This document shows, in pieces, positions 4,402-58,824 of a stretch of 64,000 nt of DNA. A program made the translations under genes and the position numbers. This DNA is from an uncultured Phycisphaerales bacterium (GTDB taxonomy: Bacteria > Planctomycetota > Phycisphaerae > Tepidisphaerales > Tepidisphaeraceae), in the NCBI GenBank assembly GCA_963755915.1, contig CAVWLP010000002.1, forward strand, positions 3,712,001-3,776,000, written 5' to 3'. The notes under the pieces are model-generated. The model saw nothing but the letters and a program-made list of their open reading frames with translations, had not been told where the DNA came from and did not search any database. Numbering within the stretch: position 1 is the first letter of the stretch; each line of letters opens with the position of its first letter.

Positions 4402-6313
4402 CTATTTCGCGCGCCGCCGATTAACGCGCCGCGACAGCGCTCCCGCGCTCGCCACCGCCAAGAGCCCAATCGACATCGGTTCCGGCACCGCCCCAATCGC
4501 CGGCAGCGGCAACCCGTTCGCCACTGCAAACGCATCCAGCGCCGCCAGGTCCGCCGGCGTCACCGCCGAAAGATTATCCCCCTGCCCAAAATTCGCCGCC
4601 AGCGCCGAAAATCCGATCCGTTCACGGAGTTCGAAAACAGGAAATTCCCCTGGTCCCAGTTCGTAACCCCCAGCCCGAAATTCGCCGCCAGGATGCTGAA
4701 GTCGCTCCCGTTCACCGTCCCGTCCAGGTTCGCATCCCCCAGCAGCGTATATTTCACCTCAATTAATCCCGACGAAAGCCCGGCCACGATATGGTTCGCC
4801 CCATCCGCCCAACCCACGCCATAATGCAGCCCATTATGCAGCGTTTGCGCGGCCGATGAAATGATCCCGCTTCCGTTCCACGTGCCGTTGTTGTAGCCGC
4901 TCTTCAGCTCCGCGTAGACGGTGCTCATCGGATCGCCGCCGTTGGAATAATTCACCAGCAGCTCGTTCTTGGTGATGTCGACGGTTCCGCCGACCGAGAG
5001 GTTGTCGACCTCAATAACATTGCCGGAGCCTTGGATGGTCGCCGTCCCGCCCGCCGCGACCGAAAGCGTGTTGGCCGTTGAGGAGTTCCCGAATGCGATA
5101 GAGGCGTCGCTGTCGACCGTGATAATCGACTGATAGATCACCGACCCGCCGCCGCTCTGGGTAATTTTATCCCCGCTGTCAATGGTCAGGGGATTAGCGA
5201 TAATCAGCGAAGCGCCGCTGGCGACGTTGAAAACCGTATTGCTGGCAATGGTCGTGGGGATGTTGATCTCCTGCGTGCCGTTCTGCACGATCACCTCGGC
5301 ATCGCCGCTGGACGCCTGGAGTGTCAGTGAACCGGTTCCCGTGATTTCGTATTCATTGGCGTTATTGAAATTGATGGTCCCAACCGTGATCGCCGAATCG
5401 GAATAAACGGTGGTATTGGAAGTGGCCGCGCTGTAGAAGTCGGCTTCCGCGCCGCGCCGTTGGGCACCACGCCGGTCCAGTTGTTCACATTGTTCCAGCT
5501 TCCCGAGCTCGTAGAGTTCCATTGCTGAGGGGCGGTGGTGCTGGTGATGGCGAGGTTGTTCAACTCAATATCGCTGCCCCCCTCGCCGTTATCGTTGTAA
5601 ACGGCGAACTGTGAGGGCCCGCCGGTGCCCATCGAAATCTGCCCGGTAAATGTCTGCGACGCCCCGGTAACGCTGCCGTTGACGGCCGACGTGACGGTAA
5701 ACGTGTAATCGCCCGAGGAATCGTTCAGCTCAAAGGCGAACGTATCGCCGCTCAGATAATTGTACGGGACCGTTGTCTCCAGCGTATCCGACTGCGTGGC
5801 ATCGGTCAGAAAATATCCCGAAGCGCCGCCGGCCGTGTGGAAGTCGAAAAGCGTGTTGCCCGAAGAATCCTCCAGGGCCCATCCCAGTGCCGAGCCACCG
5901 CCTTGCGTTTGATTGGCGTAATGCAAAACGTCGGAGAATTTGAAGACCTGGTCGGGCGATAGCGCGCCGCCGGTGAACGGGCGGACGGCCGTCGTCACGT
6001 CCACGCCATAGTCGCCGCCGCCGTTGCCGTCGTTGGTGTCGTTCCATACATCGAAGTCGGGCTCAGTGACGACGCCAGTGTTGTCGTAGGTGCTGCCGTT
6101 GATGTAATCGCCGCCGGTGCCGGTGATGTTCACAGTCCAGGGCCCGAACCCTGTGCCCCCGTTTTCGCCGGCGAAAGCGTCGTACAACGTGTAAGCCGAA
6201 TTGGAAGCGTTGTCGGAAGCCGTATCAGCCGCACGAGCGGCGCGGATTCCGAAAGATGCCACTGTCAGCGCCGCAGCGCCGACGACGATAGACTGCCTCG
6301 TTTTCGATTGCAT
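4402..6313 (-). CDS. Secreted PEP-CTERM protein: uncharacterised N-domain, beta-strand repeats and dockerin-like tail (2 probable sequencing frameshifts, ~5455 and ~4607)
   Basis: GAGGAGG RBS, then ATG 6313 with signal peptide MQSKTRQSIVVGAAALTVASFGIRAARA. Joining frames gives ...GDANLDGTVNGSDFSILAANFG...AVPEPMSIGLLAVASAGALSRRVNRRRAK, TAG at 4402. Confidence 0.88.
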
Positions 6314-6368
6314 GTGACCTCCTCTGACGAGCCTGCCTCTGGAACGTTTGTGCGATTTGAACGGCGGC

Positions 6369-6434
6369 AATTTATCAATTCGACGCCAGCGCAATCTATG
6401 TCTTTTCGCGCCAATCTCGCTCCGTTTTGCGGCG
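6369..6434 (-). promoter_or_regulatory. XylR/AraC-type direct-repeat site A plus -10 (TAAATT at 6374)
   Basis: Minus strand CGCCGCAAAA-CGGAGCGAGAT-TGGCGCGAAA, matching four other sites in module 1. Confidence 0.75.
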
Positions 6435-6622
6435 GGCATCCCCGATGTGAAGGGCGGCAATGTTTATCGTATAAACCAGTAGAATCTGGAGAATCTGCAA
6501 GGATCGTGTCACCTGTACGCCAGCCCCCAATCGTCTCGATTGCGACAAACAGATCGCGCAAACAAAAACGTGCCGAGTCAGGCTCGGCACGTGCGGAGGG
6601 TATTACGTCGCGCGAACTCTAA

Positions 6623-7480
6623 TCATCTTTCGCTGCGACGGCGTCTGATCATCAGCATTGCCATCCCTGTGCCCACCGCGGCCAGCGAAACCGGCTCCGG
6701 CACATTGGTGATTGCCAGGTCGTCAAACTGCACGTCGCTCCCCTCACCGCCGTTGTTGTTGTAAATCGCCACCTGCGAAATTCCCCCCGTAAGCATCGAG
6801 ATCGTCCCGGTATACGCCTGCGATCCGCCGGCAACACTTCCGCCCGACGCAGTGAAGCTGTACGCGGCCGTCGCCGGTCCCACGCTATTCAGCGTAAAGC
6901 TGAAGGTGTCGATGGCGTGATAGTTATACCCCACGCCCGACACCGTCCCGGTTTGCGTTGCATCGCTCAGCAGATATCCCGGTCCGCCGCCTTGCACGTG
7001 GAAATCGAACAGTGCATTCCCGCTCGAATCCTCCAGGCTGAAACCGAGGTTGCTTGGACCGCCGTTGCTCGGATTGCTCCCGTTATTAAGCTGCTCGACA
7101 AACGAGAAATCCTGATTCGCGGCCAGCGCGCCGGTGAAAGGCCGTATCGCCGTAGTCGCATCTGTGACCGAGCCTGGGGTTGGCGAGTTCTGGGTTCCGT
7201 TGCAGTAAATGTCGAATCCCTGACCCGCGCCCGGAGTTGTCAAATCCACGTTATTCCACATGAAACTTCCGTACTCGTTCGCGTTGGACGTTGACTCCAG
7301 GACGTTCCAGGCTCCGAATCCAGTGCCGCCGTTCAGGCCATTAAAATTGTTGTAGCCTGTGTAAGGGGGATTATTCGATACCATGTCCGATGCGACCAGC
7401 GACGCACGCGCGACAGTGCCGACACCGCCCAAAACTGCCGCACCCAGACCGACCCACAATAATTTCCCGTTGTTCCGCAT
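6623..7480 (-). CDS. Small PEP-CTERM protein (285 aa), paralog of the N-domain of 4402-6313
   Basis: GGAGG RBS, signal peptide, C-terminal VPEP + hydrophobic helix + RRRR. Confidence 0.92.
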   Translation of the reverse strand: MRNNGKLLWVGLGAAVLGGVGTVARASLVASDMVSNNPPYTGYNNFNGLNGGTGFGAWNVLESTSNANEYGSFMWNNVDLTTPGAGQGFDIYCNGTQNSPTPGSVTDATTAIRPFTGALAANQDFSFVEQLNNGSNPSNGGPSNLGFSLEDSSGNALFDFHVQGGGPGYLLSDATQTGTVSGVGYNYHAIDTFSFTLNSVGPATAAYSFTASGGSVAGGSQAYTGTISMLTGGISQVAIYNNNGGEGSDVQFDDLAITNVPEPVSLAAVGTGMAMLMIRRRRSER

Positions 7481-7846: not shown

Positions 7847-8686
7847 ATGACGACGACCGCGAAGCAAAGTTCCCGGCTCAAATCCGGCTTTACCCTCGTC
7901 GAATTGCTCGTCGTCATCGGCATCATTGCCATCCTGATCGGCATCCTCCTGCCGGCGCTTCAAAAGGCCCGTCAGCAGGGCCAACTCGTCGCCTGCCAGT
8001 CAAACATCCGTGAAATCCTTCAGGCCATGCAGAATTATTTGAGCGATAACAACTCCACGTTTCCGAATGGACGGAATTTCTCGTGGGAAATGGAGAAAGA
8101 ATCAAACGGATCGCCCATGTATCCAAACCTGGATCCATTGACATACACGTCGGGAGGCGCACTTCCAACCAACGATTACATCCAGGATTTTCTATCGCCC
8201 TACCTGCACTACACCGAAGACGGCAATAACCCAAGCACGCTTCCCAGCACCGAGAGCTATGCGGGCCCTGTGAATCTCGTGTGGCATTGTCCGGCGCTGC
8301 CGCCCGGTCAATTTGCCCAGCCATGGATGGACACCCCGACGGCAACGGCGTATCGCTATAATCTGGCTTATGCTTGTGGCTACAAGGCACGCCGTGTCAC
8401 ATCCTCCACAATTGCGATGCTATTTTACGATGAGGTGTGGGTCGATAAAAACTGGCCTCCAGGATCGTATCCCCATTTTCCCCGCAGCGCTAACTCGGCC
8501 ACCGTCAACGTTGGCTATGTCGATGGTCACGTCGAGCCCCACACCTATGCCCAGTTTGTGGCCGGTCTTTACCCAGTGACAGTAACGATAAAACTTCCCA
8601 GCGGCGTGAACTATGCCTATGCGACAGACACCGCGCCACAAGAACAATACGCGACCTTTTACAAACAAGGCTACGGCAACCCATAA
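7847..8686 (+). CDS. Prepilin-type N-methylation / H-X9-DG (DUF1559-like) protein 1
   Basis: Class III signal G^[33 protein letters not shown]-terminal PH...NVGYVDGHVE. Confidence 0.93.
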   Translation: MTTTAKQSSRLKSGFTLVELLVVIGIIAILIGILLPALQKARQQGQLVACQSNIREILQAMQNYLSDNNSTFPNGRNFSWEMEKESNGSPMYPNLDPLTYTSGGALPTNDYIQDFLSPYLHYTEDGNNPSTLPSTESYAGPVNLVWHCPALPPGQFAQPWMDTPTATAYRYNLAYACGYKARRVTSSTIAMLFYDEVWVDKNWPPGSYPHFPRSANSATVNVGYVDGHVEPHTYAQFVAGLYPVTVTIKLPSGVNYAYATDTAPQEQYATFYKQGYGNP

Positions 8687-8705: not shown

Positions 8706-11603
8706 ATGAAGCGCAAATTAGTTCGGAGGCGGCGAGCGCTGATCGAGCAATTGGAAGTCCGCCAATTGCTTTCCGGAATCATTGCCGACTCAAATTTCGC
8801 CACCCCCTCAATCTCTCACAACAGCTATTCCTACGACCCCACCGGCTCCGTCTGGACATTCGTCTCCACCGCCGGAGTCGTTTATCCTCCAAGCTCGCTC
8901 GGCGCTCCCTCCGCCCCCGCCGGCAGCGGCTCAAACCAAATCGCCTTTCTCCAAACCAATCGCAGCGCCAGCCAATATAACGGCTCCCAGGACGGCACCA
9001 TCTCCCAATCGATCACCCTCCCCTCCACCGGCTATTTCACCTTCAGCGTCTACGCCGCAGCGGATTCCAGCGATGTCGGCGGATCCGTCGCCGCCGAAGA
9101 ATCCTTCATGGTCGAGATCGACGGCACCCCCGTCCTCACCGGCCTGCATCCAACCAGCAGCTCCTTCGCCAGCGTCGGCGGAACCTTCTACGCCACCGCC
9201 GGAACCCACACGTTTTCCCTCGTCTCCACCGGTCCCAACGACCCAACAACGACCTTCATCGACGACCCCCAATTGGTCGCCGCCACCGTCGGCGCCGCGA
9301 CTCAGCTCGTTTTCTCAACGGTCTCTGAATCCCTGGCAACCGGCGTGAAATCCAGCCTCATGACCCTGACCTTAGAAAGCGCCGCCGGCCTCCCGGTAAC
9401 CGCAGGCGCCGGCGGCGTGACCGTCAATCTCAGTTCCACCTCAAGCTCGGGAATCTTCTTCAACAGCGGCAATGCCGTCGCATCTACTGTGACGATTGCC
9501 GCCGGCGCCAGCACCGCCAGCTTCTACTACCAAGACACCACCGCCGGCTCCCCCACGCTCACCGCCTCCTCTCCCAGCTTAACCAGCGCTACCCAGCAGG
9601 AGTCCGTCCAGGCAGTAATCTCCAGCTCATTCCTCCACACCTCCGGCACAAACATCGTCAACGCCGCCGGCCAAACCATCGAACTTCGCGGCGTCAATCT
9701 CGGAAGCTGGCTCATCATGGAAGGCTGGATGTCCCCTCTCGACAGCTCCGGACTCCCGGACGAATACGGCGTCATCCAAACCCTCGACAACCGCTTCGGC
9801 GTCGCCACCGAACAAAGCCTCCTCACCACCTACCAGCAAAACTGGATCACCACTCAGGACCTGGAAAACATCAAGAACGAAGGCTTCAACGTCATCCGCG
9901 TCCCCGTCTGGTGGGCCGACTTCGAAACCCTCCAGGGCCAGTGGCGTACCGACGCCTTCAACGAACTCGATTGGCTCGTCAACACCGCCGGCTCACTCGG
10001 AATCTACACCATCATCGACATGCACGGCGTCGTAGGCGGCGAAAGCACCTCCGACGACACTGGCCAGGAAAATCTCGACAACTACTGGACCAGCCCCTAC
10101 GACCAGCAACAGACCGACATCCTCTGGGAAAACATCGCCCAGCACTACAAGAACAACCCCTATGTCGCCGGCTACGACCTCATGAACGAGCCCGACAACG
10201 CCCCCAGCGACTCGGCCGTCATCTCCGCCTACGACCAGCTCTACAGCGCCGTCCGCTCCGTCGACACCAACCACATCGCGATTATCGAGGGAACATTCGA
10301 CCAGTGGAACTGGAGCATGCTCCCCAGTCCCTCTTCCCAAGGCTGGACCGACGTCGTTTACGAGATGCACGAATACCAATGGAACGACACGACCAATCCA
10401 TCAGGCGTAGAAGCCGGCACCAACAACCAGGTCAGCGATTTCCAGAACCACTCCTACTACGACGTTCCCGACTACATCGGCGAATTCAACGATTTCGGCA
10501 CCGGCTCCAGCACCTGGCAATACACCTTCCAGCAGTACGATAACAACAACATTAGTTGGAGCTTCTGGTCCTACAAAGCCACCGATGGCACCGCCTCCAG
10601 CATGGATAGCTGGGGCCTGTACGATCCCATCAACAGTCTCCCCGCCCCCAATATTCAAACCGCCACGTTGTCCACGATTTCACAGGATTGGACGGGTGTC
10701 ACGACGACCGGCTATTTCGCCATCAACACGCTGATACAGCCGGCCCTTCAGGCGGCGGGCGTTGTCGGCAATATCGTCGCCTGGACCGACAAAGACGGCA
10801 ACGACAACTGGTCCGATCCAAATAACTGGAGCACCGGCGCCATTCCCAATTCCTCCAGCGATGTGATCATCTACTCCGGCGAGGTCGTCGCCTCCAGCGC
10901 AATCAACGTCGCGACCCTCACGATCTACGGTGGCGAGTTGCAGTTCGCCACAAACAGTGGATATTCCGCCGTCACCTCCCTGAACATCATGCCCAGCGGC
11001 GTCTTGGATCTCACCAACAACCGCCTCTATATCGACTTCGGCACGGGCAACACCGACCCGGTCTCCATGATCTATACCTGGCTTCAAAGCGGCTACAACG
11101 GCGGAGCCTGGAACGGCCCGGGAATCGATTCCTCCAGCGCCGCCGCCAACAACCTTTACGCCTTGGGATACGCCGACGGCTACGACATCCTCACCCCGGG
11201 CCTCAGCTTCGGCCAAATCGAAATCGCTTACACCCTCTATGGCGACGCGAACCTCGACGGCACCGTCAACGGCACCGATTTCTCGATTTTGGCCGCCCAC
11301 TTCGGCCTGGGCGCAACCGCCTGGGACGCGGGAGACTTCACCTACGGCGGCGTCGTCAACGGCACCGATTTCAGCCTCCTCGCCGAAAACTTCGGCCAGG
11401 GCGCCACCGGCGCCGCAAGCGGGTCAGAGCCCAGCATCGCCTTCGCCGCCGCCGCCCTCACCACCGACGATCCCACCACGCTTCCCGCGTTGACCCCTTC
11501 GAAAAAGACAACGCAGGGAGTGATGGCTCGCTTGGTGAGCGCGCCGCCGGTCAAAGCGAAGCAAACCAAGCCTTCCACTAGCTCCACCCATCACGGATTC
11601 TGA
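8706..11603 (+). CDS. Extracellular GH5 glycoside hydrolase with planctomycete LExRxLLS N-terminal motif, Ig-like domains and dockerin-like tail (no PEP-CTERM)
   Basis: RRALIEQLEVRQLLS; GH5 motifs GVNLGSWLIMEGWM, IDMHG, YDLMNEP, YIGEFN; GDANLDGTVNGTDFSILAAHFG duplicated EF-hand-like loops. Confidence 0.9.
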   Translation: MKRKLVRRRRALIEQLEVRQLLSGIIADSNFATPSISHNSYSYDPTGSVWTFVSTAGVVYPPSSLGAPSAPAGSGSNQIAFLQTNRSASQYNGSQDGTISQSITLPSTGYFTFSVYAAADSSDVGGSVAAEESFMVEIDGTPVLTGLHPTSSSFASVGGTFYATAGTHTFSLVSTGPNDPTTTFIDDPQLVAATVGAATQLVFSTVSESLATGVKSSLMTLTLESAAGLPVTAGAGGVTVNLSSTSSSGIFFNSGNAVASTVTIAAGASTASFYYQDTTAGSPTLTASSPSLTSATQQESVQAVISSSFLHTSGTNIVNAAGQTIELRGVNLGSWLIMEGWMSPLDSSGLPDEYGVIQTLDNRFGVATEQSLLTTYQQNWITTQDLENIKNEGFNVIRVPVWWADFETLQGQWRTDAFNELDWLVNTAGSLGIYTIIDMHGVVGGESTSDDTGQENLDNYWTSPYDQQQTDILWENIAQHYKNNPYVAGYDLMNEPDNAPSDSAVISAYDQLYSAVRSVDTNHIAIIEGTFDQWNWSMLPSPSSQGWTDVVYEMHEYQWNDTTNPSGVEAGTNNQVSDFQNHSYYDVPDYIGEFNDFGTGSSTWQYTFQQYDNNNISWSFWSYKATDGTASSMDSWGLYDPINSLPAPNIQTATLSTISQDWTGVTTTGYFAINTLIQPALQAAGVVGNIVAWTDKDGNDNWSDPNNWSTGAIPNSSSDVIIYSGEVVASSAINVATLTIYGGELQFATNSGYSAVTSLNIMPSGVLDLTNNRLYIDFGTGNTDPVSMIYTWLQSGYNGGAWNGPGIDSSSAAANNLYALGYADGYDILTPGLSFGQIEIAYTLYGDANLDGTVNGTDFSILAAHFGLGATAWDAGDFTYGGVVNGTDFSLLAENFGQGATGAASGSEPSIAFAAAALTTDDPTTLPALTPSKKTTQGVMARLVSAPPVKAKQTKPSTSSTHHGF

Positions 11604-12502: not shown

Positions 12503-12526
12503 TCGCCGACAACGCCACCTATCCCC

Positions 12527-15406: not shown

Positions 15407-15776
15407 CGCGACACGGGAGCATTAGGCATAATGTCAGAGACGACAGGGCGAACTACCTTTTTGAGCCTCCGCCTTTCGGCGCACAGATCGGTCGGGCAAC
15501 GACTGAGTAACCAACGAAGCCAAGTCGGCTGATTCGCGGTAAGCTGCCAACTCTGCCATCGCGACTCTACCGCGAAGTCGGAATCATGTCGCTCGTGCTG
15601 ATAAATCTACGTATGATTTCCAAAATGCGAAATTCACCGCAAAATTGCTTGCCCAAACTACCTATATTTCCCAGTTTGTTGCGGACTGTTACCTTTTGTA
15701 CCGCATGTACCCCATACAAAAATATTTAGCCGGGGAACGGTATATTTCCGTCCGTTCTAGTGGACGGCTAATAGAG

Positions 15777-17065: not shown

Positions 17066-17110
17066 ATCGCCTGTCAAAGGCACCTTTTTCTGGTGGTCAC
17101 TGGAGACGCT

Positions 17111-21048: not shown

Positions 21049-21072
21049 TCGCAAGCGGCCTGCTTGAGGTGC

Positions 21073-48900: not shown

Positions 48901-49168
48901 CGTCACCAACTGGGACCAGGGGAACTTCCTGTATGGCAGTTCGGTCAACGGCTCCGACTTCAGCGCCTTGGCGGCCAACTTCGGCCAGGGCGACAGCGGC
49001 GCTGCCGTAACCCCGGCGGACATCGCCGCACTCGATGCCTTTGCCGCCGCCAACGGCCTGCCCGCGCCGACGATCGCCGCGGTGCCGGAACCGGCCACGC
49101 TTGGCCTGCTGGCCATCGGCAGCCTCGGCCTGATGTCCCGGCGGCGCAAGCGGGAGACTTTGAACTAG
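45914..49168 (+). CDS. Large PEP-CTERM beta-strand-repeat surface protein with dockerin-like tail
   Basis: GGAGG RBS + ATG 45914 (in frame with ORF 45785); extended signal peptide; no catalytic motif recognised; GDANLDG...AVPEP. Confidence 0.88.
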   Translation: MGRLTSHCVGKKANSQNQNKRANRIFARRLSVLVSATAVSFLTLKGHAQTTNLTWDPAQNANNSLPASGGSGTWNTTLANWSNGTADVVWADTTGSLDNAVFGGTAGTVTLNTSLGTSDLIFQTSGYTISGTGILEMSNNGATDLDSSALTSSGTETLSAIDVHAGSVTWNIGAASLNFAGAVRDNGQSHMTLTVNGTGTALFSGGLTLSQSNSSRTWVLAGGENLDVTGLIQDGGTNVTNGFVYDGTGTLTLADTSNSFVVGSGQSVTVASGVMAIANPGALGGASGSPNPMEIGNNTAEATFQGIGTVLVSIPNAVTLGGGTVGVSVIGGTTPLNFTGAVTGSGSVDDLNVNNTALTTFSGNFYLGSSGSRTVNIGGTGNLLISAPVGDTPTGPGPCSLNYVGTRTLTLNNATNSFTGSLGVDSGTLFLAPGAIGAATQFNFGNNTASATLLPDGGDLNIAVPTSLNVSQTTGADIVAGSNNVNFSGTVTGAQAHVQFQNNSTGLTTFSGPVYLSPNTTNGETVNFGGSGNILISGQISDANGATGANPGSVVFNGTGTVTVSNSNLYTGTTQISSGEVVVASSNATGDNPSSTVTLSGGILASSAGSYFTLANTVAAGSGAHTIVPGGVDGVGTLGVAGLITNSNTTLEFQLGTGSGTITNGSQLILTGGAGSATIGTGTNLEFTGSTAAGNDYELIGDTSGGTVVSGLPLGNFTLPAAPAGETYSLADVGNFIDLVVASSGPVSLFWDNAGGSGNGTTWDTSNQNWNNGSAATTYADGAAVTFNDTNALHYAVTLTTTVSPASVTVNSSGNYSITGGGLIVATGGFTKMGTSTLTLGVGLTASSLAINGGNVVLASNTTASSGWTATNPVSNINVSSLTIAANSVLDISNNHVIIDYGATDPMSTILGYLKSGFNNGAWNGTSGIISSAAQTKTNGLTYSIGWADGNDKTGAVKNLTSGEIELKYTLVGDANLDGTVNGSDFSILAANFGLGVTNWDQGNFLYGSSVNGSDFSALAANFGQGDSGAAVTPADIAALDAFAAANGLPAPTIAAVPEPATLGLLAIGSLGLMSRRRKRETLN

Positions 49169-52200: not shown

Positions 52201-52545
52201 AAATACACCCTCCTCGGCGACGCCAATCTCGACGGCACCGTCAACGGAACCGATTTCTCCATCCTCGCCGGCAATTTCGGACTCGGCTACACCAACTGGG
52301 ACCAGGGCAACTTCCTCTTCGCCTCCTCCGTCAACGGTTCCGATTTCTCCGCCCTCTCCGCCAATTTCGGGCAGGGCGTAGCGCTTCCCGCGGCGGTGAT
52401 CGTTGAAGCCCCGGCGGCGGGGGTCACTCCGGCCTCTACCTCCACAACCGCCGACACCACTTCCGACAATTCCGTCACGACGACTGTCTTGAAAAAATCC
52501 CCCCCGCACCCGAATATCTCGCGGCATAACGGAGATCATCGTTAG
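49201..52545 (+). CDS. Extracellular GH28 with LExRxLLS N-motif, lectin-like and Ig-like domains, dockerin-like tail (no PEP-CTERM)
   Basis: IDTLEARCLLS; NTDGID, GDD, GHG, RMKS; PVWLEVVRSGSTFSGYYSTNG; GDANLDGTVNGTDFSILAGNFG. Confidence 0.9.
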   Translation: MMMCRRKPSLRRAVIDTLEARCLLSSIPTPTIPSRVFNIESYGAVDTSANNTTDIQAAISAAAAAGWGIVEIPAAAQDWECGPLTLSSNIDFQVDAGATLQMLAYGTYPLVSGATSYANFIEANDVSNVEISGGGTIDGNGAPWWVAYNNGTLTVTRPQMVAINNCDIVLIEGITLQNPPNTHISIQNACNDVTVQNITINTPGTNAPNTDGIDVSGTNMIFRNDSISDGDDNIAMGAGATSGGPETANITIIDCFFGVGHGLSIGSYTSGGVDNVTVADCTFNGTTSGIRMKSERGRGGLVENISYYNITMTNVEYAIDINSYYSAAVPSNPQDPAQPLDLTPFWQNITISNLVSATTSSQSNYSGSYCGIIWGLPEAPVSGVTLSNVQLTARYGFDLDHDTNVAFDAACRITPLGGGSEEMSDTSAPTPYEVTVEQEGYSDEDVGSPATAGDTVYNPDAALLTDTAGGTGIGGASDQFNFLSETATGNITYFADLTSNSSSSSTDGVMIRDSSNTASSAFADAVVTPGSVVQFQYRSANGGTVSTDSVSNVTAPVWLEVVRSGSTFSGYYSTNGTTWNLIGSASVTMSSTEMVGVAVAANSSSSTTTAQFASLAGPSITTEPLASPQPVTGTTANLSVSATESGSTLTYTWSILESPSGVTTPTFSTNGTSTSNDTTATFFGAGIYEFLVTVTDSNNDARYAVLGVGVNQTPTAVTVKPASTAVLVNTSSVFTASATDQFGVTFEPNFSWSLVSGSGTQDSSAGVYNSPNTAGSATIGATAGSVSNTASITIVPVFAVESGSTLEVTLNSTGTVTLSTSGSSVTASEDGILKGFTGVTALTVTDSGSGDTLNFDGPLADPFIFSNAGTSTINVNTGTLNFAPVSSIALGTLNIASGALAAVPVNSSAQTLLLLNGLSITSGTLDLSDNELLITYGGGSDPMSAIYTFIQSGYNNGGWNGPGIISTSARTPTNGLTYALGFSDGKDGIVSGLSSGQIEVKYTLLGDANLDGTVNGTDFSILAGNFGLGYTNWDQGNFLFASSVNGSDFSALSANFGQGVALPAAVIVEAPAAGVTPASTSTTADTTSDNSVTTTVLKKSPPHPNISRHNGDHR

Positions 52546-52549: not shown

Positions 52550-53863
52550 ATGAAGATCATCGGTTGCGTCATCGTCTGGGTATTGGCAATCGGACCGGCA
52601 TCCCTCCTCGCCCAGTCGGCCCTTACCCAGCCGCCCCTGGTCCCCAAGCCGGTCATTCCCGACCGCCGGTTCAGTATCCTCGCCTACGGCGCGGTCGGCG
52701 ACGGAATCGCGAAAAACACGCTTGCCATCACGCGGACCATCGCCGCCTGCCAGGCGGCGGGCGGTGGCACCGTCGAAATCCCGCCCGGCCGGTTCCTTAC
52801 CGGGCCATTCGCCCTCATCAGCAATCTCAATCTTCATCTCGACGCCGGCGCTACGCTCGTCTTCAGTAACAATCCCGCCGATTACAAAATCACCAGCCGC
52901 CAGTTCCAGAACTGCATCCAGGCCACCGATTGCCACGACCTCGCCATCACCGGGCCGGGCACCATTGAAGGCCAGGGGGAGTTCTGGTGGAAGAATTTCG
53001 TCCGCCCCAAGACGGCCCCGGCGGATTTTCCGATGCCCCGCCGGCCCTTTTTGGTCGTCCTCTCGCAATGCCACCGGGTCTGGGTGCAGGGAATTACCCT
53101 GCAGAATTCGCCCAATTTTCACCTCGTTCCTGCGGGGTGCGATGACCTCACCATCGACGCCGTCCGCATCAAGGCCCCCGCCAAGTCGCCGAATACCGAC
53201 GGAATCGACCTCACTGCCCACAACTGCGTCATCACCAACTGTGTTATCGATGTCGGCGACGACAACCTGGTTCTCAAGCCGGGCGGCTCGGGCGATTCCA
53301 CCGAGCCGGCGTGCGAGAACATCTGGGTCAGCGGGTGCAAATTCCTCCACGGCCACGGCATGTCCATCGGTGGCCAGAGCCACGGCGGGGTCCGAAACCT
53401 CACCGTCCGCGACTGCACCTTCGACGAGACCGACGCTGGTATACGCATGAAATCCGCCCGCGGCGTCGGGGGCCTGGTCCAAAACCTCACCTACGAAAAC
53501 CTCCGCATGAACCAGGTGAAGATTGCCGTCTTCATCACCAGCTATTACCCCGAAATTCCCGCCAACCCGGCGACGTTGCCTTCCCTCCCGGTCAACAAGC
53601 AAACCCCCATCTGGCGCAACATTCTCATCCGCAACCTCACCTCTATCAACGGCGACACCGCCGGCCGAATCATCGGGCTGGCCGAAATGCCCATTTCCGG
53701 CATTGTCTTCGAAAACGTAAACCTCGCTGCCGAAAGGCCTCTGCAGATCGTCTGGGCCAATGACATTCAATTCTACGATTCGCGGATAACCGTCCCCAAA
53801 CAGCCGGTGATCTCCATCAGCCACGGCCAGGTCTTCGGCATCGACCCGAACACCGGCCGTTAA
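52550..53863 (+). CDS. Secreted GH28 polygalacturonase
   Basis: Signal peptide; NTDGID, GDD, GHG, RMKS. Confidence 0.94.
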   Translation: MKIIGCVIVWVLAIGPASLLAQSALTQPPLVPKPVIPDRRFSILAYGAVGDGIAKNTLAITRTIAACQAAGGGTVEIPPGRFLTGPFALISNLNLHLDAGATLVFSNNPADYKITSRQFQNCIQATDCHDLAITGPGTIEGQGEFWWKNFVRPKTAPADFPMPRRPFLVVLSQCHRVWVQGITLQNSPNFHLVPAGCDDLTIDAVRIKAPAKSPNTDGIDLTAHNCVITNCVIDVGDDNLVLKPGGSGDSTEPACENIWVSGCKFLHGHGMSIGGQSHGGVRNLTVRDCTFDETDAGIRMKSARGVGGLVQNLTYENLRMNQVKIAVFITSYYPEIPANPATLPSLPVNKQTPIWRNILIRNLTSINGDTAGRIIGLAEMPISGIVFENVNLAAERPLQIVWANDIQFYDSRITVPKQPVISISHGQVFGIDPNTGR

Positions 53864-54186: not shown

Positions 54187-55094
54187 ATGCAAAAACACTC
54201 CAGGGCCTTCACGTTGGTCGAGTTACTTGTCGTCATCGGCATCATTGCCGTCCTGATCGGCATTCTGCTGCCGGCGCTGCAGAAAGCGCGCGATCAGGCG
54301 AACACGACGGCGTGTCAATCCAACCTGCGCCAGATTTATGACATTTTCCTTCTTTACGCCGACGATTATCAGCAGTATGCCCTCCCCGCTGAAGAAACCT
54401 ATACGGGTGGGTCCGAATACTTTTGGTGGTGCCGACTCTCATCGGTAACGAGCTTGGGGCAAATACGAATCAGACTCAGAACGTAAACGATCAGAAGATT
54501 ATCAAGTACCTTCAGTGTCCTTCCGCCGATCACCAATATGACGTTGGCGGCCCGCTGGCGGTGAACAACTACTGGGGCGACTACACCTATAACCTCAACA
54601 TGGGAGGAATTACCGTCCCCGCTTCCGGCCCACCGACCTTCTCGCCCCCGCTGGAAAAGCTCAGCGAAATTCCCAGCAACGTAATTCTCGCATGCGACAT
54701 GATCAAAGAATACTCCGAAGCTACGGCTGGCCCTACCCAACAGTGGCGGGAATCGACGTTTGCCCAGATGAATTATCTTCTGGGCAATCACTGGGGCACG
54801 GGAACCAATGGAGTGGGACTTTGGAGTGGGACTGCTGAAGAGAACCCCTCCATCTGGATTCCCCATACCAAAGGCACCCAGTGCAATGTGCTGTGCATGG
54901 ATGGCCACATCGCGCTGGTCACGCTGAGCCAATTTTGCCAGCCCGGCGGCGGAAGCATCGTTACCACGACGGTTCCCTGGCTATATAAGCCTGGCGCGAG
55001 TGGGTCTTTCACCACGAAGGACTACCTGGTCGGATATTGGAAAAATAACGCCTGGTCGACGGCCTGGAACAAGTACGCGCCACCATTATTCTGA
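54187..55094 (+). CDS. Prepilin-type / H-X9-DG (DUF1559-like) protein 3; frameshift ~54425
   Basis: GAGGAG RBS; RA^[55 protein letters not shown]. Confidence 0.9.
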
Positions 55095-55104: not shown

Positions 55105-56372
55105 ATGTATAATCCCCCGGCCATCGCAGAGGAAATTCCCCAATCAGTCCATGCGCCTTCCTTCCGCTGGGTCATCTGCGCCCTCCTTTTCTTGGCCACC
55201 ACCATCAACTACATGGATCGCCAGATCCTCGGCATCCTCGCCCCCACACTCCAGAAAGACATCGGCTGGAACGAAGTACAGTACGGCCACATCGTCATGG
55301 CCTTCCAAACCGCCTACGGCATCGGCGTGCTGATCTTGAGCCGACTGATCGACCTCTGGGGCACCCGCATCGGCTACACCCTTTCGATCCTGGTCTGGAG
55401 CATTGCCGCCTGTCTCCATTCCGCGGCGCACTCGGTCGTTACCTTCGGATCTGCCCGGTTCCTTCTCGGCCTCGGCGAAGCCGGGAATTTTCCCTCCGCC
55501 GTCAAAGCAGTGGCCGAATGGTTTCCCCAAAACCAGCGGGCATTGGCGACCGGCATATTTAACAGCGGGTCCAATGCCGGCGCCGTTCTCGCCCCCGCCC
55601 TCGTCCCCATGCTCACCCTGGGTTTGGGTTGGAAAGCCGCCTTCATCGTTGTCGGCTCGGCCGGATTTCTTTGGGTCCTCGCCTGGCTTGCGATCTATCC
55701 CAAAATCCGCTTCTCGCCAGCCCTGCCGGCGATTCTTCATCTGTCGGCTCTTACAGTTGGCCTCTGTTATTTAAGCACCCTCAAACCTGGGCCAATGTTT
55801 TTCAATCCGCCTGCATCTCCCCGATCTGGTGGTTTTATCTCTACTGGCTGCCCAAATTCTTCTCCTCTGTCTATGGCCTCAGCCTCTCCAAGCTCGGGCC
55901 GCCGCTTATCATCGTCTATTCAATGTCTTTCGCCGGCAGCATCCTCGGCGGACTTCTTCCCGCACTCTTTCTTTCCACCGGCGCTTCCGTGAACTTCAGC
56001 CGGAAAATGTCATTCCTGATCTGCGCCGCCCTGACGGTCCCCGTCGCATTCGTGACGTGCATGCACAACGTCTGGCAGGCCACGTTCACCATCGGCCTTG
56101 CCGCCGCCTCCATGCAGGGATGGTCTGCAAACTCCTACACCATGGTCTCCGACCTCTTCCCCAAAAAAGCGGTCGCCTCGATCGTCGGAATCGGCACCGC
56201 CTCCGGCGCGGCAGCTTCGATCGCCTTCTCCGACCTGGCTGGAAACATTTTGCAGCACAGCGGAAGCTACGTCATATTGTTTATATTTGCCGGCGCTGCA
56301 TACCCGGCGGCGCTGCTGTTTATCCATCTCCTGGTCCCTCACTGGAGGATGGCTGAGCTGGAGGAGAATTGA
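55105..56372 (+). CDS. exuT: MFS hexuronate (galacturonate) transporter, ExuT-like; frameshift ~55730
   Basis: RWVICALLFLATTINYMDRQ, GLGEAGNFP, AEWFP, ATGIFNSG, PIWWFYLYWLP, SDLFPKKAVAS; pectin context. Confidence 0.85.
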
Positions 56373-57760
56373 AGATGATGCCACGACATTTTTGGGCGAT
56401 GCTTGTGTCTTGCGTCGCTTTCGGCGCAACCGCAGTTGCCGCCACAACCCAACCGTCCGTCTTCAACGTCTTTGTCGTCGCCGCGATCCCCGGTGGCAAA
56501 CCCCCCGCCAAGTCCGCGATCCAAAATGCCATTGACGCCTGCGCCGCTGTCGGTGGCGGCGAGGTGTTTGTTCGCAAAGGCACCTATCTCACCGGGCCAA
56601 TCCATCTCGCCAGCGGCGTAGACCTTCACGTCGATGCCGGCGCCGTCGTCCTCTTCAGCAATAACACCAGTGATTATCCCGTCCGCTCCACTCCCGCCGC
56701 TGACGGCTCTGCCGTTCGGGTGTCTCCACTTTCCGCCGACGGCGTCCACGACATCTCCATCACCGGAACCGGCACCTTCGACGGCCAGGGCGAAGCCTGG
56801 CGGCCTATCAAGCGGGAAAAAATGCCGACCGATCAATGGCGAAAACTCACCGCCGGCGGGGGAGTTTTCGATGCCGTCTCCCAGACCTGGTATCCCTCCG
56901 CCGACAAATCCATCAGCAAAGAACGTCCGGTCCTGGTTTACCTGGCCAACTGCCATGATGTTTTGCTCGACGGCCCCACTTTCCGCAATTCGCCGAACTG
57001 GGACCTGCATCCGTTTCAGTGCACCAACGTCACCATCCGTCACGTGACGCTCTTCAATCCTCCCTATGCGCAGAACGGCGACGGGATCGACATCGACTCC
57101 TGTTCGAACGTCGTCATGAGCGACAGCGTGATCAACGCGGGGGACGATGCCGTCTGCCTCAAGTCCGGCACCATTGCCGGCGGGCATAAGCAGCCGCCGG
57201 ACGAAAATATTACCATCACCCGCTGCACCATTGGGTCTGGTCACGGTGGCATTACCATCGGCAGCGAAATGTCCGGGGGGGTCCGCAACGTCACCATCTC
57301 CCACTGCCAGCTCACCGGCACCGACGCCGGCCTTCGCTTCAAAACCGAACGAGGCCGCGGCGGGGTCGTCGAAAACATCAACATCAGCGATATCGCGATG
57401 TCCGAAATCCAACATGGCGCGATCGAGTTCGACATGTTCTACGGACAGAAGCGCCCCTCCTCGACGCCAAAATCCGTCGGCGACGGGACGCCCCAATTCC
57501 GTAATTTCCAGATCAGCCGCATCTCCTGCGACGGCGCTCAAACCGCCCTGGTCATGCGCGGGCTTCCCGAAATGCCCCTCCGGGGAATTTCTCTGGACGA
57601 TGTGCAAATCCATGCCCAAAAAGCCGGGGAGATCGACCATGCCGACGATCTAACCCTTAAGGATATCCAGATCGTCGCCGAATCAGAAACCCCCGTTCTT
57701 TTCAAGGACGTTCACGACCTCAAGACCGATCACGTTCAAGGCCTGTCCGATTCACGTTGA
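56369..57760 (+). CDS. Secreted GH28 (exo)polygalacturonase
   Basis: Signal peptide; NGDGID, GDDAVCLKSG, GHGG, RFKT. Confidence 0.93.
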   Translation: MKMMPRHFWAMLVSCVAFGATAVAATTQPSVFNVFVVAAIPGGKPPAKSAIQNAIDACAAVGGGEVFVRKGTYLTGPIHLASGVDLHVDAGAVVLFSNNTSDYPVRSTPAADGSAVRVSPLSADGVHDISITGTGTFDGQGEAWRPIKREKMPTDQWRKLTAGGGVFDAVSQTWYPSADKSISKERPVLVYLANCHDVLLDGPTFRNSPNWDLHPFQCTNVTIRHVTLFNPPYAQNGDGIDIDSCSNVVMSDSVINAGDDAVCLKSGTIAGGHKQPPDENITITRCTIGSGHGGITIGSEMSGGVRNVTISHCQLTGTDAGLRFKTERGRGGVVENINISDIAMSEIQHGAIEFDMFYGQKRPSSTPKSVGDGTPQFRNFQISRISCDGAQTALVMRGLPEMPLRGISLDDVQIHAQKAGEIDHADDLTLKDIQIVAESETPVLFKDVHDLKTDHVQGLSDSR

Positions 57761-57791
57761 TCGACCGGTCCATCCATTTTGGAGCAGCTTC

Positions 57792-58824
57792 ATGCGATTT
57801 CGAGTGATGTGCGTTTCCGTCCTTCTCTTCGCCGCCCTCTCCCGTGCCGACGACAAAACCTTCGTCGTCGCCGCCGACGGGTCCGGCGACTATAAAACCG
57901 TGCAGGACGCCATCGCCGCCGTTCCCGAAAAATCCGACACGCGTACCATCCTCCACCTCAAGCCCGGCACCTATGACGGGCCCTTCATCATTCCCCAGAA
58001 TAAGCCGAACATCACCATCCAGGGCGACGACCCGGCGACGACGATCCTGAGCTGGGACCGCAACGTGCGCAACCCGATCCCCACCGGCAACGACGGATTC
58101 AACCCCGGCCTACAGGTTCGCGGCGACGATTTCCAGGCCATACGCGTCACCATCCAAAACATCTCCGGCGACCATGGCCAGGCCCTCGCCCTGCGCGCCG
58201 ACGGCGACCGCGCAATCTTCCTCGATTGCCACATCACCGGCTGGCAGGACACCGTCATGGTCAATAACGGCCGCGACTATTTCCAGGACTGCACTATCGC
58301 CGGCCGCGTCGATTTCATTTACGGCTCCGCCACCGCCTGGTTCCAGGATTGCGAAATCCACAGTCGCAACGGGGGTCACGTCACCGCCGCCAGCACGCCG
58401 CAGGACCATCCATATGGATTCGTCTTCAAGAATTGCAAACTCACCGGAGATTCGATCGCCTACGACCCCGCGACCACCAACCCTTCTTCGACCGTGAAGC
58501 CCAAGGTAACCCCCCTCGCCGACCTCGGCCGCCCCTGGCGACCCTACGCCTCCGTCACTTATCTCGATTGCGAATTGGGCGCCCACATCAAGCCGGCGGG
58601 ATGGAACAACTGGGGCAAAAAGAGCAATCAACAAACCGCGCGCTACTCCGAATACCAAAGCACCGGCCCGGCACGGCGCCCGATCAGCGCCCTCCTGGTC
58701 GCATCAATTAACCGACGACCAGGCAAAGCAGATTACGATTCAGGCGGTCCTTGCCGGTGATGACAATTGGGATCCAGAATCAGTTGCACAATCGCTCACG
58801 GCGGCCGCCACGACTCAAAAATAG
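57792..58824 (+). CDS. Secreted CE8 pectin methylesterase; C-terminal frameshifts ~58670-58695
   Basis: DGSGDYKTVQDAI, GQALAL, WQDTV, VDFIYG, LGRPW; continues SHQLTDDQAKQITIQAVLAGDDNWDP...TQK, TAG 58824. Confidence 0.92.

Follow-up and report, generated by a model that had tools for sequence, protein, structure and literature searches.

Do the pilin-like proteins of planctomycetes serve the uptake of polysaccharides, and does each belong to the breakdown of one particular glycan? Pili-like fibres of planctomycetes bind dextran and ‘dedicated pilin-like proteins’ have been put forward as fishing rods in passages of two papers (PMC5394234, PMC12078418), where polysaccharide-binding ‘fishing-rod’ pili in Planctomycetes are a hypothesis already in print; a 2025 review, in the part that touches on this, still calls the players unknown (PMC12673574). 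The question is raised here by a window of 64,000 nucleotides – the whole stretch of DNA that was analysed – in which a first-pass annotation described a glycan-foraging unit, with one pilin-like gene each time, repeated three times in a row.

A Pfam/NCBIfam scan of 45 ORFs in the window (Pfam E≤1e-3, NCBIfam E≤0.01) finds, between 4.4 and 58.8 kb, three CAZyme clusters side by side, from a Tepidisphaeraceae-like, soil-type planctomycete (Table 1). CAZymes are present in all three modules, as described, and each has one PBP-type sugar regulator of its own (XylR-type in modules 1 and 3, LacI-type in module 2). Module 1 holds a beta-glucan/cellodextrin set (GH5, GH5, GH1), module 2 a mixed set (two BT3686-like BNR_4 proteins, GH16 with CBM4_9, and GH35) and module 3 a pectin set (five GH28, two CE8 and an ACS-type MFS permease). 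The clusters do lie in a row, but module 1 is broken up by a DUF2461 gene and by 3 kb of low-GC DNA that carries orphan ORFs, and ‘repeated unit’ is a misnomer: there is no duplication, and gene order differs from module to module. The reported lack of TonB-dependent receptor, SusD and ABC binding-protein families is borne out among the 45 ORFs, and an inner-membrane importer does exist in the form of the module 3 permease.

The modules hold two, three and two PEP-CTERM proteins, respectively, in keeping with the claim of at least two in each: the 6623 protein and the other-frame tail of the 4402 gene in module 1; the 25073 part of the giant surface protein, 26417 and 32166 (the last by eye only) in module 2; and 43173 and 45785 in module 3. 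A dockerin-tailed enzyme, said to occur in every module, is confirmed by score in modules 1 and 3; Dockerin_1 exceeds the Pfam cutoff only in the GH5 at 8706 and the GH28 at 49201, and four further dockerin-like loops, those of module 2 among them, score below it. The cluster enzymes look staged by sorting signal, with PEP-CTERM, dockerin-like or ‘planctomycete extracellular’ signals on the outer enzymes and a plain Sec signal on others. The GH1 and one GH28 are without a signal peptide, and for this reason the GH1 is likely cytoplasmic. Frameshifts split pilin-like gene 3 and at least eight other genes; because the breaks fall mostly at homopolymers, the splits are probably assembly errors.

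Table 1. Features of the three clusters, with positions in the window and the matches on which each assignment is based.
Module	Feature	Position	Strand	Evidence
1	Large surface protein, dockerin-like loop and PEP-CTERM tail	4402..6460	-	Dockerin_1 18.0 bits, below cutoff, otherwise no Pfam match; split into ORFs 5324-6460 and 4560-5522, tail 4402-4560 in another frame, its PEP-CTERM identified by eye from the translated frame
1	PEP-CTERM protein	6623..7480	-	TIGR02595 22.4 bits (cutoff 16); C-terminus VPEP...RRRRSER
1	Pilin-like gene 1, 279 aa, prepilin leader	7847..8686	+	PF07963 28.7 bits; TIGR02532 25.2 bits
1	GH5, ‘planctomycete extracellular’ N-terminal signal and dockerin	8706..11603	+	PF00150 96.6 bits; PF07595; PF00404 27.8 bits on C-terminal segment
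1	XylR-type regulator, PBP domain and AraC HTH	15645..16938	+	PF13377 118.7 bits; PF22177; second HTH half in another frame from ~16770; stop 16936-16938
1	GH1 beta-glucosidase	17093..18544	+	PF00232 498.7 bits; TIGR03356 535.2 bits (cutoff 478.5)
1	Second GH5, C-terminal extension	18561..21054	-	PF00150 89.5 bits; split at G5 run near 20049
2	Giant beta-strand-repeat (PATR) surface protein	21590..26344	+	PF12951 matches; TIGR02595 19.3 bits; three ORFs by splitting; ends in dockerin-like loop (21.7 bits, below cutoff) and PEP-CTERM
2	BNR_4 (BT3686-like rhamnosidase family), PEP-CTERM	26417..28990	+	PF15892 179.5 bits; TIGR02595 19.6 bits; NF052497 195.4 bits (<700); dockerin-like loop 17.4 bits, below cutoff
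2	Second BNR_4, Sec-type signal	30728..31894	+	PF15892 293.7 bits; NF052497 387.8 bits (<700)
2	PEP-CTERM protein, no other assignment	32166..33140	-	C-terminus VPEPMSF...RRRRVSRK; weak model matches only (NF038129 17.9 bits, PF07589 12 bits)
2	Pilin-like gene 2, 349 aa	33686..34735	+	PF07963 34.9 bits; TIGR02532 28.1 bits; PF07596 27.8 bits
2	GH16 and CBM4_9, beta-glucanase-type	34766..36091	-	PF00722; PF02018
2	LacI-type regulator	36176..37333	+	NF007075 (HTH part); PF13377 64.8 bits; split at G runs between HTH and PBP parts
2	GH35 beta-galactosidase and F5/8 type C domain	37619..39988	+	PF01301 352.8 bits
3	GH28, split, without signal peptide	40057..41535	-	PF00295 162.9 bits
3	XylR-type regulator	41695..43046	+	PF13377 107 bits; AraC HTH in another frame after G7 run at 42579; HTH-like C-terminus in ORF 42591-43046
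3	CE8 pectinesterase and PEP-CTERM	43173..45647	+	PF01095 87.5 bits; TIGR02595 21.4 bits
3	Large PEP-CTERM protein, beta-strand repeat	45785..49168	+	PF07589 27.6 bits; TIGR02595 24.3 bits; dockerin-like loop 18.2 bits, below cutoff
3	GH28, 1114 aa, planctomycete extracellular-type leader RRAVIDTLEARCLLSS and dockerin	49201..52545	+	PF00295 185.6 bits; dockerin 23.3 bits, just past cutoff
3	GH28, Sec-type signal	52550..53863	+	PF00295 175.4 bits
3	Pilin-like gene 3, split	54187..55094	+	PF07963 31.7 bits on N part; TIGR02532 22.3 bits; N part 54187-54486, C part 54423-55094 in other frame, break at GGGG 54456-54459
3	ACS-type MFS permease (galactonate/hexuronate transporter family)	55105..56372	+	PF07690 126.5 bits; split near A4 run at 55702; TIGR00893 150.2 and 63.4 bits on two parts (cutoff 395)
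3	GH28, Sec-type signal, start overlapping MFS stop	56369..57760	+	PF00295 148.8 bits
3	CE8 pectinesterase, Sec-type signal	57792..58760	+	PF01095 208.4 bits

Each module contains one gene with a prepilin signal, as first annotated; all three products (pilins 1, 2 and 3) match PF07963 and TIGR02532 (cutoff 16.3 bits), and a profile built from pilin 2 relatives and compared with the six-frame ORFs of the window recovers exactly these three (98.9 bits for pilin 1). Their leaders end in G or A – A at -1 in place of G in pilin 3 – and continue as FTLVELLVV, with E at +5. The N-terminal signal and the CQSN and CP motifs are common to all three and the middles divergent, again as described, with NVxxxDGH alone shared in the globular parts. 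By model score, assignment to the H-X9-DG family falls short: with TIGR04294 (cutoff 19) pilin 1 scores 16.0 bits and pilins 2 and 3 are unmatched, and only pilin 2 passes the DUF1559 cutoff (PF07596, 23.3 bits), pilin 1 scoring 22.3 bits. The C part of pilin 3 has no family match in Pfam/NCBIfam. A pilin-type fold is predicted for pilin 2, whose AF2 model (pLDDT 78.4) combines a 50-residue N-terminal helix (residues 10-60) with a beta domain, and whose first 60 residues resemble solved pilins and pseudopilins. Residues 60-349 match 89 representative clusters among 1.84 billion proteins (E≤1e-3), and the globular domain is, judged by sequence, fast-evolving; a search for lectin, CBM or binding-protein similarity in it found none.

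Such proteins could be cargo-specific pseudopilins of a T2SS-type machine, with a part in carrying the enzymes encoded nearby through the outer membrane and none in binding glycans. The N-terminal 60 residues give their top scores against the GspG and ComGC models, although the GspG score (TIGR01710, 34.6 bits) falls far under its cutoff of 88.85, and NCBI calls some of the pilin 2 relatives, which come from Tepidisphaeraceae MAGs, ‘type II secretion system protein’. A secreted GH5 follows pilin 1, a secreted GH16 lies opposite pilin 2 in a linkage that recurs in relatives, and a dockerin, in some cases accompanied by PEP-CTERM, is present in three of the 12 longer relatives (GH or CBM domains in 0/12). 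We nevertheless consider this export role unlikely: the inner-membrane permease directly after pilin 3 fits uptake better, and the scan finds neither T2SS genes nor filament machinery (prepilin peptidase, secretin, ATPase or platform genes) in the window.

The placement of the three genes bears on their link to carbohydrate utilisation. Pilin 1 and the GH5 at 8706 lie 20 nt apart on the same strand, and pilin 3 stands in a same-strand pectin row, followed by the MFS, GH28 and CE8 genes with overlaps or gaps of at most 32 nt; the tight spacing of pilin 1 with GH5 and of pilin 3 with MFS argues for co-transcription. Pilin 2 is convergent with the GH16 gene, with 31 nt between them. Relatives of pilin 2 and of this GH16 have in common seven contigs of identical size and matching source (12403, 8270, 29659, 104569, 12441, 63083 and 119475, by longest contig). 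Among the 15 pilin 2 relatives with at least 47% identity on contigs of at least 8 kb, five share a same-sized contig with a GH16 relative and ten, including the closest (86% identity, 1.4 Mb contig), share none. By this contig evidence, the pilin 2–GH16 linkage is conserved in relatives.

In a family-wide sample of 78 loci, with the genes at -1, +1 and +2 scanned with Pfam, contexts are diverse and many members lie among housekeeping genes; GH/CE neighbours occur at six loci (L008, L016, L019, L024, L050 and L052) and PBP-type sugar regulators at five (L002, L006, L016, L021 and L035). A quick tree sets 50 canonical Planctomycetia DUF1559 rows (SH-aLRT 99) apart from 24 non-canonical ones. 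With this grouping, which was chosen after the data were seen, a GH/CE or regulator neighbour is present at 9/24 non-canonical and 1/50 canonical loci (Fisher p = 9e-5), and neither at 15/24 and 49/50; part of the contrast may be due to lineage background, because the non-canonical group is mostly Phycisphaerae, a CAZyme-rich lineage. In this sample the non-canonical subfamily shows a clear excess of such neighbours over canonical DUF1559. A label-change test on the tree speaks the other way: it counts 8 changes, where shuffling gives 7.7 on average, and so finds no clustering. A layout of regulator, pilin and GH recurs in L016, L024, L052 and L019; L016, from Tepidisphaeraceae, reads XylR-type regulator, pilin-like gene, GH53, MFS, and L024 has its pilin-like gene overlapping with one for a GH10. 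The further prediction that pilin type tracks substrate is not borne out: pilins beside the same GH family are no more alike.

A numerous, scattered family could also have met a CAZyme-dense, surface-protein-rich region by chance, the ‘modules’ being drawn around three copies afterwards. In the literature, no paralog group of P. limnophila is larger than this family, which has 68 copies there (PMC10632474), and in T. immobilis the two-domain proteins number 91 and are ‘evenly spread around the genome’ (PMC8567305); the diverse contexts of the 78 loci and the unrelated DNA interrupting module 1 point the same way. The window has two extra copies in 63 kb, for which P(≥2) = 0.20 at the rate in the flanks of the 78 loci sampled (14 over some 1.06 Mb), whereas p = 0.047 against a Phycisphaerae-labelled reference (18 loci, 246,963 bp less focal genes) whose roughly 229 kb contain no extra copy; copy density within the window is weak evidence, and its result varies with the reference. 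Against chance stand the seven shared contigs, the tight same-strand spacing, the non-canonical contrast, the recurrent layout and the Phycisphaerae-labelled flanks with their zero extra copies, and we regard co-location by chance as distinctly improbable; a non-random link of this kind of pilin-like gene to carbohydrate utilisation is supported. It is very improbable that these are fibre structural subunits whose hypervariable globular domains diversify under phage or grazer pressure and reach CAZymes through shared variable cell-surface islands: the extreme globular divergence and the large repeat-rich PEP-CTERM neighbours would suit this, but PBP-type sugar regulators beside 5/24 non-canonical loci, and a single GH16 lineage conserved as partner, point to carbohydrate-specific regulation.

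We tentatively favour, at slightly short of an even chance, three carbohydrate-utilisation clusters that each have one divergent DUF1559/H-X9-DG-like pseudopilin as a co-regulated accessory part. This reading builds on the gene content, sorting signals, pilin-type fold, conserved pilin 2–GH16 linkage and subfamily enrichment beside GH/CE genes and sugar regulators observed here. Prepilin peptidase would cleave each pilin-like protein, and the N-terminal helix would anchor it, either to the inner membrane or within a fibre of T2SS/T4P type; the fast-evolving globular domain would deal with the glycan of its own cluster, either capturing it or passing poly- or oligosaccharide towards the periplasm and permease. 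Processing by the peptidase, assembly into a fibre, binding of glycan and a role like that of SusD/TBDT, if any, are steps that we infer; the first-pass view of a substrate-specific capture subunit on a T4P/T2SS-like filament that takes the place of SusD/TBDT draws support from none of the present results. Because each neighbouring sugar-degradation cluster holds one divergent pilin-like gene, the three are testable candidates for the polysaccharide uptake route of these bacteria. Compared with GspG, which an export role would take as the model, the pilin-like proteins show their similarity in the N-terminal 60 residues but are two to three times its size, a difference that speaks against such a role.

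Forty-five open reading frames of the window, selected as long ORFs with high third-position G+C (total G+C is 53–63% in 2-kb windows), were scanned against Pfam and NCBIfam, and the three adjacent carbohydrate modules between 4.4 and 58.8 kb are tabulated here. The gene content reported by the first-pass annotation is largely real; that observation is confirmed in part, and its interpretation supported in part. Each module has a regulator of its own and at least two PEP-CTERM genes (two, three and two in modules 1, 2 and 3), as had been claimed. Substrate coherence, also claimed for all three, is clear for the pectin module and reasonable for module 1, but module 2 is mixed, and its 'arabinogalactan' label is not established from the gene families found. 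In every module a CAZyme lies no more than two genes from an auxiliary gene or a second CAZyme, and all three are CGCs in the sense used for Planctomycetota (where the partner may be a regulator, a transporter or another CAZyme; PMC11131199, available text), a source which in that text reports CAZyme family diversity and not gene fractions.

Coordinates of the features in the window
Module	Feature	Position	Strand	Remarks
	HAMP-array ORF	2-3727	minus	open-ended
1	PEP-CTERM protein	4402-6460	minus	split
1	PEP-CTERM protein	6623-7480	minus
1	pilin1	7847-8686	plus	prepilin signal
1	GH5	8706-11603	plus	'planctomycete extracellular' leader, dockerin
1	low-GC stretch	12500-15600
1	orphan ORF	13406-14365
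1	orphan ORF	14628-15233
1	XylR-type regulator	15645-16938		split
1	GH1 beta-glucosidase	17093-18544		above equivalog cutoff
1	second GH5	18561-21054	minus
2	giant beta-strand-repeat PEP-CTERM protein	21590-26344		split
2	BNR_4, BT3686 rhamnosidase type	26417-28990		with PEP-CTERM
2	class IV aminotransferase and Sulfotransfer_5	28998-30636	minus
2	BNR_4, BT3686 rhamnosidase type	30728-31894
2	PEP-CTERM protein	32166-33140
2	pilin2	33686-34735	plus	prepilin signal
2	GH16+CBM4_9	34766-36091
2	LacI regulator	36176-37333		split
2	GH35	37619-39988
3	GH28 (family counted as five; four coordinates given)	40057-41535
3	XylR-type regulator	41695-43046		split
3	CE8	43173-45647		with PEP-CTERM
3	large PEP-CTERM protein	45785-49168
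3	GH28	49201-52545		dockerin
3	GH28	52550-53863
3	pilin3	54187-55094	plus	prepilin signal, split
3	ACS-type MFS permease	55105-56372	plus	split
3	GH28	56369-57760	plus
3	CE8	57792-58760	plus
	predicted lipoprotein	59155-60360	minus
	GH127 beta-L-arabinofuranosidase-type	61919-63685

PEP-CTERM signals (TIGR02595/PF07589) score above 16 bits at 6623, 25073, 26417, 43173 and 45785, and those of the 32166 gene and of the 4402 tail were recognized by eye only; no exosortase (EpsH) is present among the ORFs of the window. The proposed dockerin-tailed enzyme per module stands for modules 1 and 3, where GH5 8706 (27.8 bits) and GH28 49201 (23.3 bits) pass the Dockerin type I cutoff of 22.9, but module 2 stays below it; four further dockerin-like loops score 17.4–21.7 bits, and no cohesin family matches among the 45 ORFs in Pfam. 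Signal peptides, read off the N-termini, suggest a staging of enzymes: the outer ones are anchored, several carry a Sec signal only, and GH1 and one GH28 lack a signal. In agreement with the first-pass annotation, the Pfam and NCBIfam scans of the 45 ORFs yielded no TonB-dependent receptor, SusD or ABC binding protein. The same ORFs include no prepilin peptidase or assembly gene (ATPase, platform or secretin), and Pfam identifies no ABC transporter gene in the window. Scans of the window for tRNAs, Rfam families and PADLOC systems gave no matches, and a promoter and terminator scan of 52.0–59.5 kb gave nothing above shuffles that helps delimit an operon.

At least nine genes are split in these 64 kb of a 5,008,362-bp contig, mostly at runs of 4–7 identical bases. 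In pilin3 the break falls at a G4 run (54456-54459). The other split genes are the regulators of all three modules, the MFS permease, one GH5 and one GH28, the giant repeat protein and the 4402-6460 gene. The frameshifts lie at 16770, 20049, 36459-36520, 40560, 42579, 54456 and 55702, with further junctions within 4402-6460 and 21590-26344. These look like indel errors of a long-read assembly rather than decay, and the gene calls are therefore not to be read as pseudogenes without re-sequencing.

Several other features lie in or beside the modules. The first gene of the window encodes a protein of more than 1241 aa with 11–12 tandem HAMP domains (PF00672, 406 bits; PF18947, 351 bits), an unusually long array in a sensor or chemoreceptor-like protein. 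Module 1 is interrupted by a low-GC stretch (0.53–0.54 vs 0.58–0.62 around it) that may be foreign DNA, and its two orphan ORFs have no match in Pfam, NCBIfam or PADLOC and no tRNA nearby. The aminotransferase and sulfotransferase genes on the opposite strand inside module 2 have no obvious tie to glycan breakdown. Just beyond the range first annotated is the GH127 gene, which has no signal peptide and may be a functional partner of the pectin or galactan genes; the predicted lipoprotein, 401 aa long with a leader that ends in LYGC, matches nothing in Pfam, NCBIfam or PADLOC and seems to be out of frame over its last 50 residues. The motif AWTTGCGAC, a candidate shared operator, occurs five times where 1.89 are expected (5 of 100 shuffles reach five), at 7617-7625, 17001-17042 (a pair), 33310-33318 and 42495-42503. 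Four of these are promoter-region sites: one upstream of pilin1, one upstream of pilin2, and two, inverted relative to each other and 24 nt apart, between the end of the XylR-type regulator and the GH1 gene downstream of it.

In pilin1, pilin2 and pilin3 alike a prepilin leader precedes FTLVELLVV, in which E occupies +5; pilin3 has A in place of G at -1 (SRA/FTLVE, the slash marking the predicted cleavage site). All three pass PF07963 (28.7, 34.9 and 31.7 bits; cutoff 21.2) and TIGR02532 (25.2, 28.1 and 22.3 bits; cutoff 16.3). For PF07596 (DUF1559/SBP_bac_10; cutoff 23.3), pilin2 scores 27.8 and pilin1 22.3, and neither part of pilin3 matches. The three had been described as 'H-X9-DG' genes, the name that JGI annotation also gives to relatives; none of them reaches the TIGR04294 (H-X9-DG) cutoff of 19 bits, pilin1 scoring 16.0 and pilin2 and the C part of pilin3 having no match at E<=0.01. 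By eye, 15 residues separate H from DG in pilin1 and 11 do so in pilin3, and pilin2 has a conserved RHG 38 residues before DG. GspG (TIGR01710) scores of 34.6, 27.9 and 34.4 bits lie below the equivalog cutoff of 88.85 and cover only the N-terminal 50–65 residues, and at 279–349 aa the pilin-like proteins compare with ~140 aa for GspG. The shared CQSN and CP motifs and the divergent middles noted at first pass hold up: beyond residue 60, only NVxxxDGH is common to all three.

An AF2 model of pilin2, the one protein modelled (41-row alignment; pLDDT 78.4, pTM 0.82), has a helix at residues 10–60 and then mainly strands, the helix-plus-beta-sheet architecture of pilins. Foldseek of the model against the PDB gave no match at E<=0.001 (best E 0.4); matches to solved structures are confined to the N-terminal helix and are all pilins or pseudopilins, as is also seen in a profile search, where the matches are geopilin, PilA4, PilE1, PpdD and GspG. 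A binding-protein fold is absent from both the model and the Foldseek matches, and the Pfam name 'SBP_bac_10' is thus not borne out for pilin2. By leader and by the predicted fold of pilin2, the three proteins are assigned to the pilin/pseudopilin superfamily, and only loosely to DUF1559.

A profile of pilin2 relatives matches exactly pilin1, pilin2 and pilin3 within the window. Whole pilin2 finds at least 7679 relatives at E<=1e-5 (of 8000 candidates), the best named ones from Tepidisphaeraceae MAGs, whereas residues 60–349 alone find 89 representative clusters among 1.84 billion; the N-terminus, together with a short C-terminal motif, thus unites the family, and the bulk of the protein is fast-evolving. 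The ESM Atlas returned only unnamed clusters for residues 60–349. A search for longer relatives, as possible fusions, found 12, and no GH or CBM domain in any. Three of them (P0243, P0244 and P0249; 901–1567 aa) join a prepilin or DUF1559 part to a dockerin, one also with PEP-CTERM, and one of the 12 has a PATR repeat. Two have a LacI- or GntR-type regulator and PBP domains and may be merged gene calls. The dockerin and PEP-CTERM tags of P0243, P0244 and P0249 are those also found on the surface enzymes of the window.

Each of the three pilin-like genes is probably a genuine accessory part of its cluster and co-regulated with it. A distance of 20 nt separates the end of pilin1 from the GH5 start on the same strand, and pilin3 is followed by the MFS permease, GH28 and CE8 on the same strand with small gaps or overlaps. 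Lists of pilin2 relatives and of relatives of GH16, its convergent neighbour, have in common seven contigs of exactly equal size (8,270 to 119,475 bp), whose sources agree and whose identity ranks run parallel; because long contigs are sparse in both lists, we infer that the seven matches are far beyond coincidence. Among the closer pilin2 relatives on contigs of at least 8 kb (n=15), five match a GH16 relative in contig size and ten do not, the closest of all (86% identity) being one of the ten. Copy density inside the window is weak evidence of a link: given one copy, two more fall within 63 kb, for which the flanks of 78 family loci (14 extra copies in ~1.06 Mb) give P(>=2) = 0.20, and the 18 Phycisphaerae-labelled loci (246,963 bp, no extra copy) give a conditional p = 0.047.

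The 78 loci (L001–L078) come from a genome scan in which 622 stretches matched and 490 were confirmed, 80 of these being kept, as 78 loci; they serve as a sample from across the family, with crude gene calls. No close ortholog is among the matches listed, the best full-length identity being ~30%. Pfam was run on 274 proteins within ±5 kb (L001–L034) and on 120 proteins at positions -1, +1 and +2 (L035–L078). A GH/CE gene occupies one of these three positions at 6/78 loci and a PBP-type sugar regulator at 5/78; within ±5 kb, a GH gene is present at 6 of the 34 loci L001–L034, with a seventh case doubtful. Housekeeping surroundings are seen at many of the 78 loci, and the commonest other neighbours are FG-GAP/UnbV_ASPIC proteins (11/78) and, at ~18/78, a small downstream ORF. 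The FG-GAP proteins (L010, L015, L030, L032, L034, L035, L038, L046, L055, L074 and L075, most also with UnbV_ASPIC) are often accompanied by TPR proteins, in stretches of uneven size. The small ORF follows immediately after the pilin-like gene, in the same orientation, and encodes 120–190 aa with no Pfam match (e.g. L018:10932-11492, L027:1010-1477, L031:1443-1895, L034:11204-11701, L062:8223-8660 and L073:1374-1811); none is found beside pilin1, pilin2 or pilin3.

A quick tree of 76 rows, leaving out four loci with short focal proteins and also pilin3 because it is split, contains a single clade with strong support, made up of 50 canonical Planctomycetia sequences. The remaining 24 locus rows – mostly Phycisphaerae, with one Lentisphaerota, one Verrucomicrobiota and a few Planctomycetia – group loosely with pilin1 and pilin2, and 52 of the 73 inner branches are open, i.e. 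the tree is mostly unresolved. With a split chosen after looking at the data, and compared within the sample rather than against a genome-wide CAZyme background, a GH/CE gene or sugar regulator at -1/+1/+2 is present in 9/24 non-canonical vs 1/50 canonical rows (p = 9e-5), GH/CE alone in 5/24 vs 1/50 (p = 0.012), and regulators alone in 5/24 vs 0/50 (p = 0.003). The Phycisphaerae are CAZyme-rich, and a label-change test on the tree revealed no clustering. The layout of the window recurs with other enzyme families at four loci: L016 has a regulator, pilin-like gene, GH53 and MFS, the pilin-like gene of L024 overlaps GH10, and those of L052 and L019 lie beside GH5 and GH29. The idea that pilin clade tracks substrate found no support when 13 focal proteins from 12 loci of informative context were compared, by their globular parts, with the three window proteins in BLASTP, which gave no tie to the neighbouring GH family (best score 28.5 bits, W2 against L024).

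As a whole, the best explanation is that these are co-regulated accessory genes with an inferred function on the glycan side, a reading that we hold tentatively. Because of its pilin-type helix, the protein would be extracytoplasmic, anchored in the inner membrane or within a T2SS/T4P-type fibre, and because its domain is hypervariable, that domain would deal with a partner specific to each paralog. Two observations favour a substrate-side role, which would be glycan capture or hand-over: pilin3 lies immediately ahead of a permease, and pairing with sugar regulators is frequent. A cargo-specific secretion adaptor is an unlikely alternative. The more specific proposal – that the non-canonical Phycisphaerae-type pseudopilins are substrate receptors of pilus-based polysaccharide import, with one glycan per hypervariable paralog, induced by the sugar regulator of the cluster and doing the job of SusD/SusC – is doubtful. 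Chance co-location has to be taken seriously because the family is published as very numerous and evenly spread, with 68 paralogs in P. limnophila (PMC10632474) and 91 two-domain proteins, evenly spread, in T. immobilis (PMC8567305; available text of both); set beside the seven common contigs, we consider it improbable. Surface variation, as a use for the hypervariable domains, is very unlikely.

Passage of polysaccharides across the planctomycete outer membrane is a process whose mechanisms and players a 2025 review, in its available text, calls unknown (PMC12673574), and binding to pili-like fibres is the one concrete proposal (PMC5394234, available text). If the CAZyme-cluster pilin-like genes belong to that route, they would provide a defined gene family to work with, three gene/substrate pairs (for beta-glucan, for a galactoside/rhamnoside/beta-glucan mixture and for pectin), and, in the sugar regulator beside a pilin-like gene, a simple genomic marker for planctomycete glycan-use loci. 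If there is co-location only, the finding is an ordinary set of CAZyme clusters. CAZyme clusters and the expanded family are both known; in the available text of the literature we found no description of an association between them, or of any tie of the DUF1559/H-X9-DG-like family to CAZyme clusters or sugar regulators.

The closest family is the expanded N_methyl + DUF1559 (SBP_bac_10) pilin-like family of Planctomycetota, which is highly paralogous and, in T. immobilis, membrane-associated (PMC8567305, PMC10632474; available text). The window proteins share its prepilin leader, FTLVELLVV helix, post-helix cysteine and C-terminal DGH, but pilin1 and pilin2 lie outside the well-supported canonical clade, pilin1 and pilin3 fall short of the PF07596 cutoff, and all three are in CAZyme clusters instead of beside the small downstream ORF and FG-GAP/UnbV_ASPIC neighbours. 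Like the Sus PULs of Bacteroidota, the modules bring together in a single locus CAZymes of coherent substrate, enzymes tethered to the surface and a local sensor or regulator; they differ in that the 45 ORFs include no adjacent susC-like/susD-like genes (no TonB receptor or SusD), in their XylR/LacI regulators, and in having PEP-CTERM or dockerin-like tails rather than lipoproteins. Modular type IV pilins such as Streptococcus sanguinis PilB, in which a pilin module with an extra functional domain explains pilus versatility (PMC8179133, available text), carry a recognizable adhesin fold as the extra module, whereas the extra domain of pilin2 has no recognizable fold relative.

Three systems bear on the proposed function. 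The Sulfolobus bindosome consists of sugar-uptake proteins with a class III pilin-type signal that need a type-IV-filament-like assembly (PMC3047682, available text); those are archaeal binding proteins of ABC transporters, whereas here the genes are bacterial, the pilin2 model has no binding-protein fold, and the only transporter is MFS rather than an ABC partner. Akkermansia, a glycan forager of the PVC group, has a pilin-like protein with PilM in a glycan-use locus (MUL1/MUL2; PMC13174399, available text); in MUL2 the pilin-like gene is beside PilM and thought to act in attachment, whereas the window has divergent paralogs beside differing CAZymes and no assembly genes. In the 'fishing-rod' hypothesis, fibres bear pilin-like proteins that capture polysaccharides whole and deliver them to an enlarged periplasm (Boedeker et al. 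2017; review PMC12078418), and dextran labelled with gold was observed on pili-like fibres 12 nm wide (PMC5394234; available text of both). This is the same idea as that of the first-pass annotation, which had the pilin-like protein replace SusD/TBDT as the glycan-capture subunit. The fishing-rod work concerns Planctomycetia and, in its available text, names no genes or gene family, whereas the present link is genomic only and concerns specific paralogs in substrate-specific clusters of Phycisphaerae. The function suggested here for the pilin-like proteins is close to the fishing-rod hypothesis and, by analogy, also to the bindosome and to MUL2.
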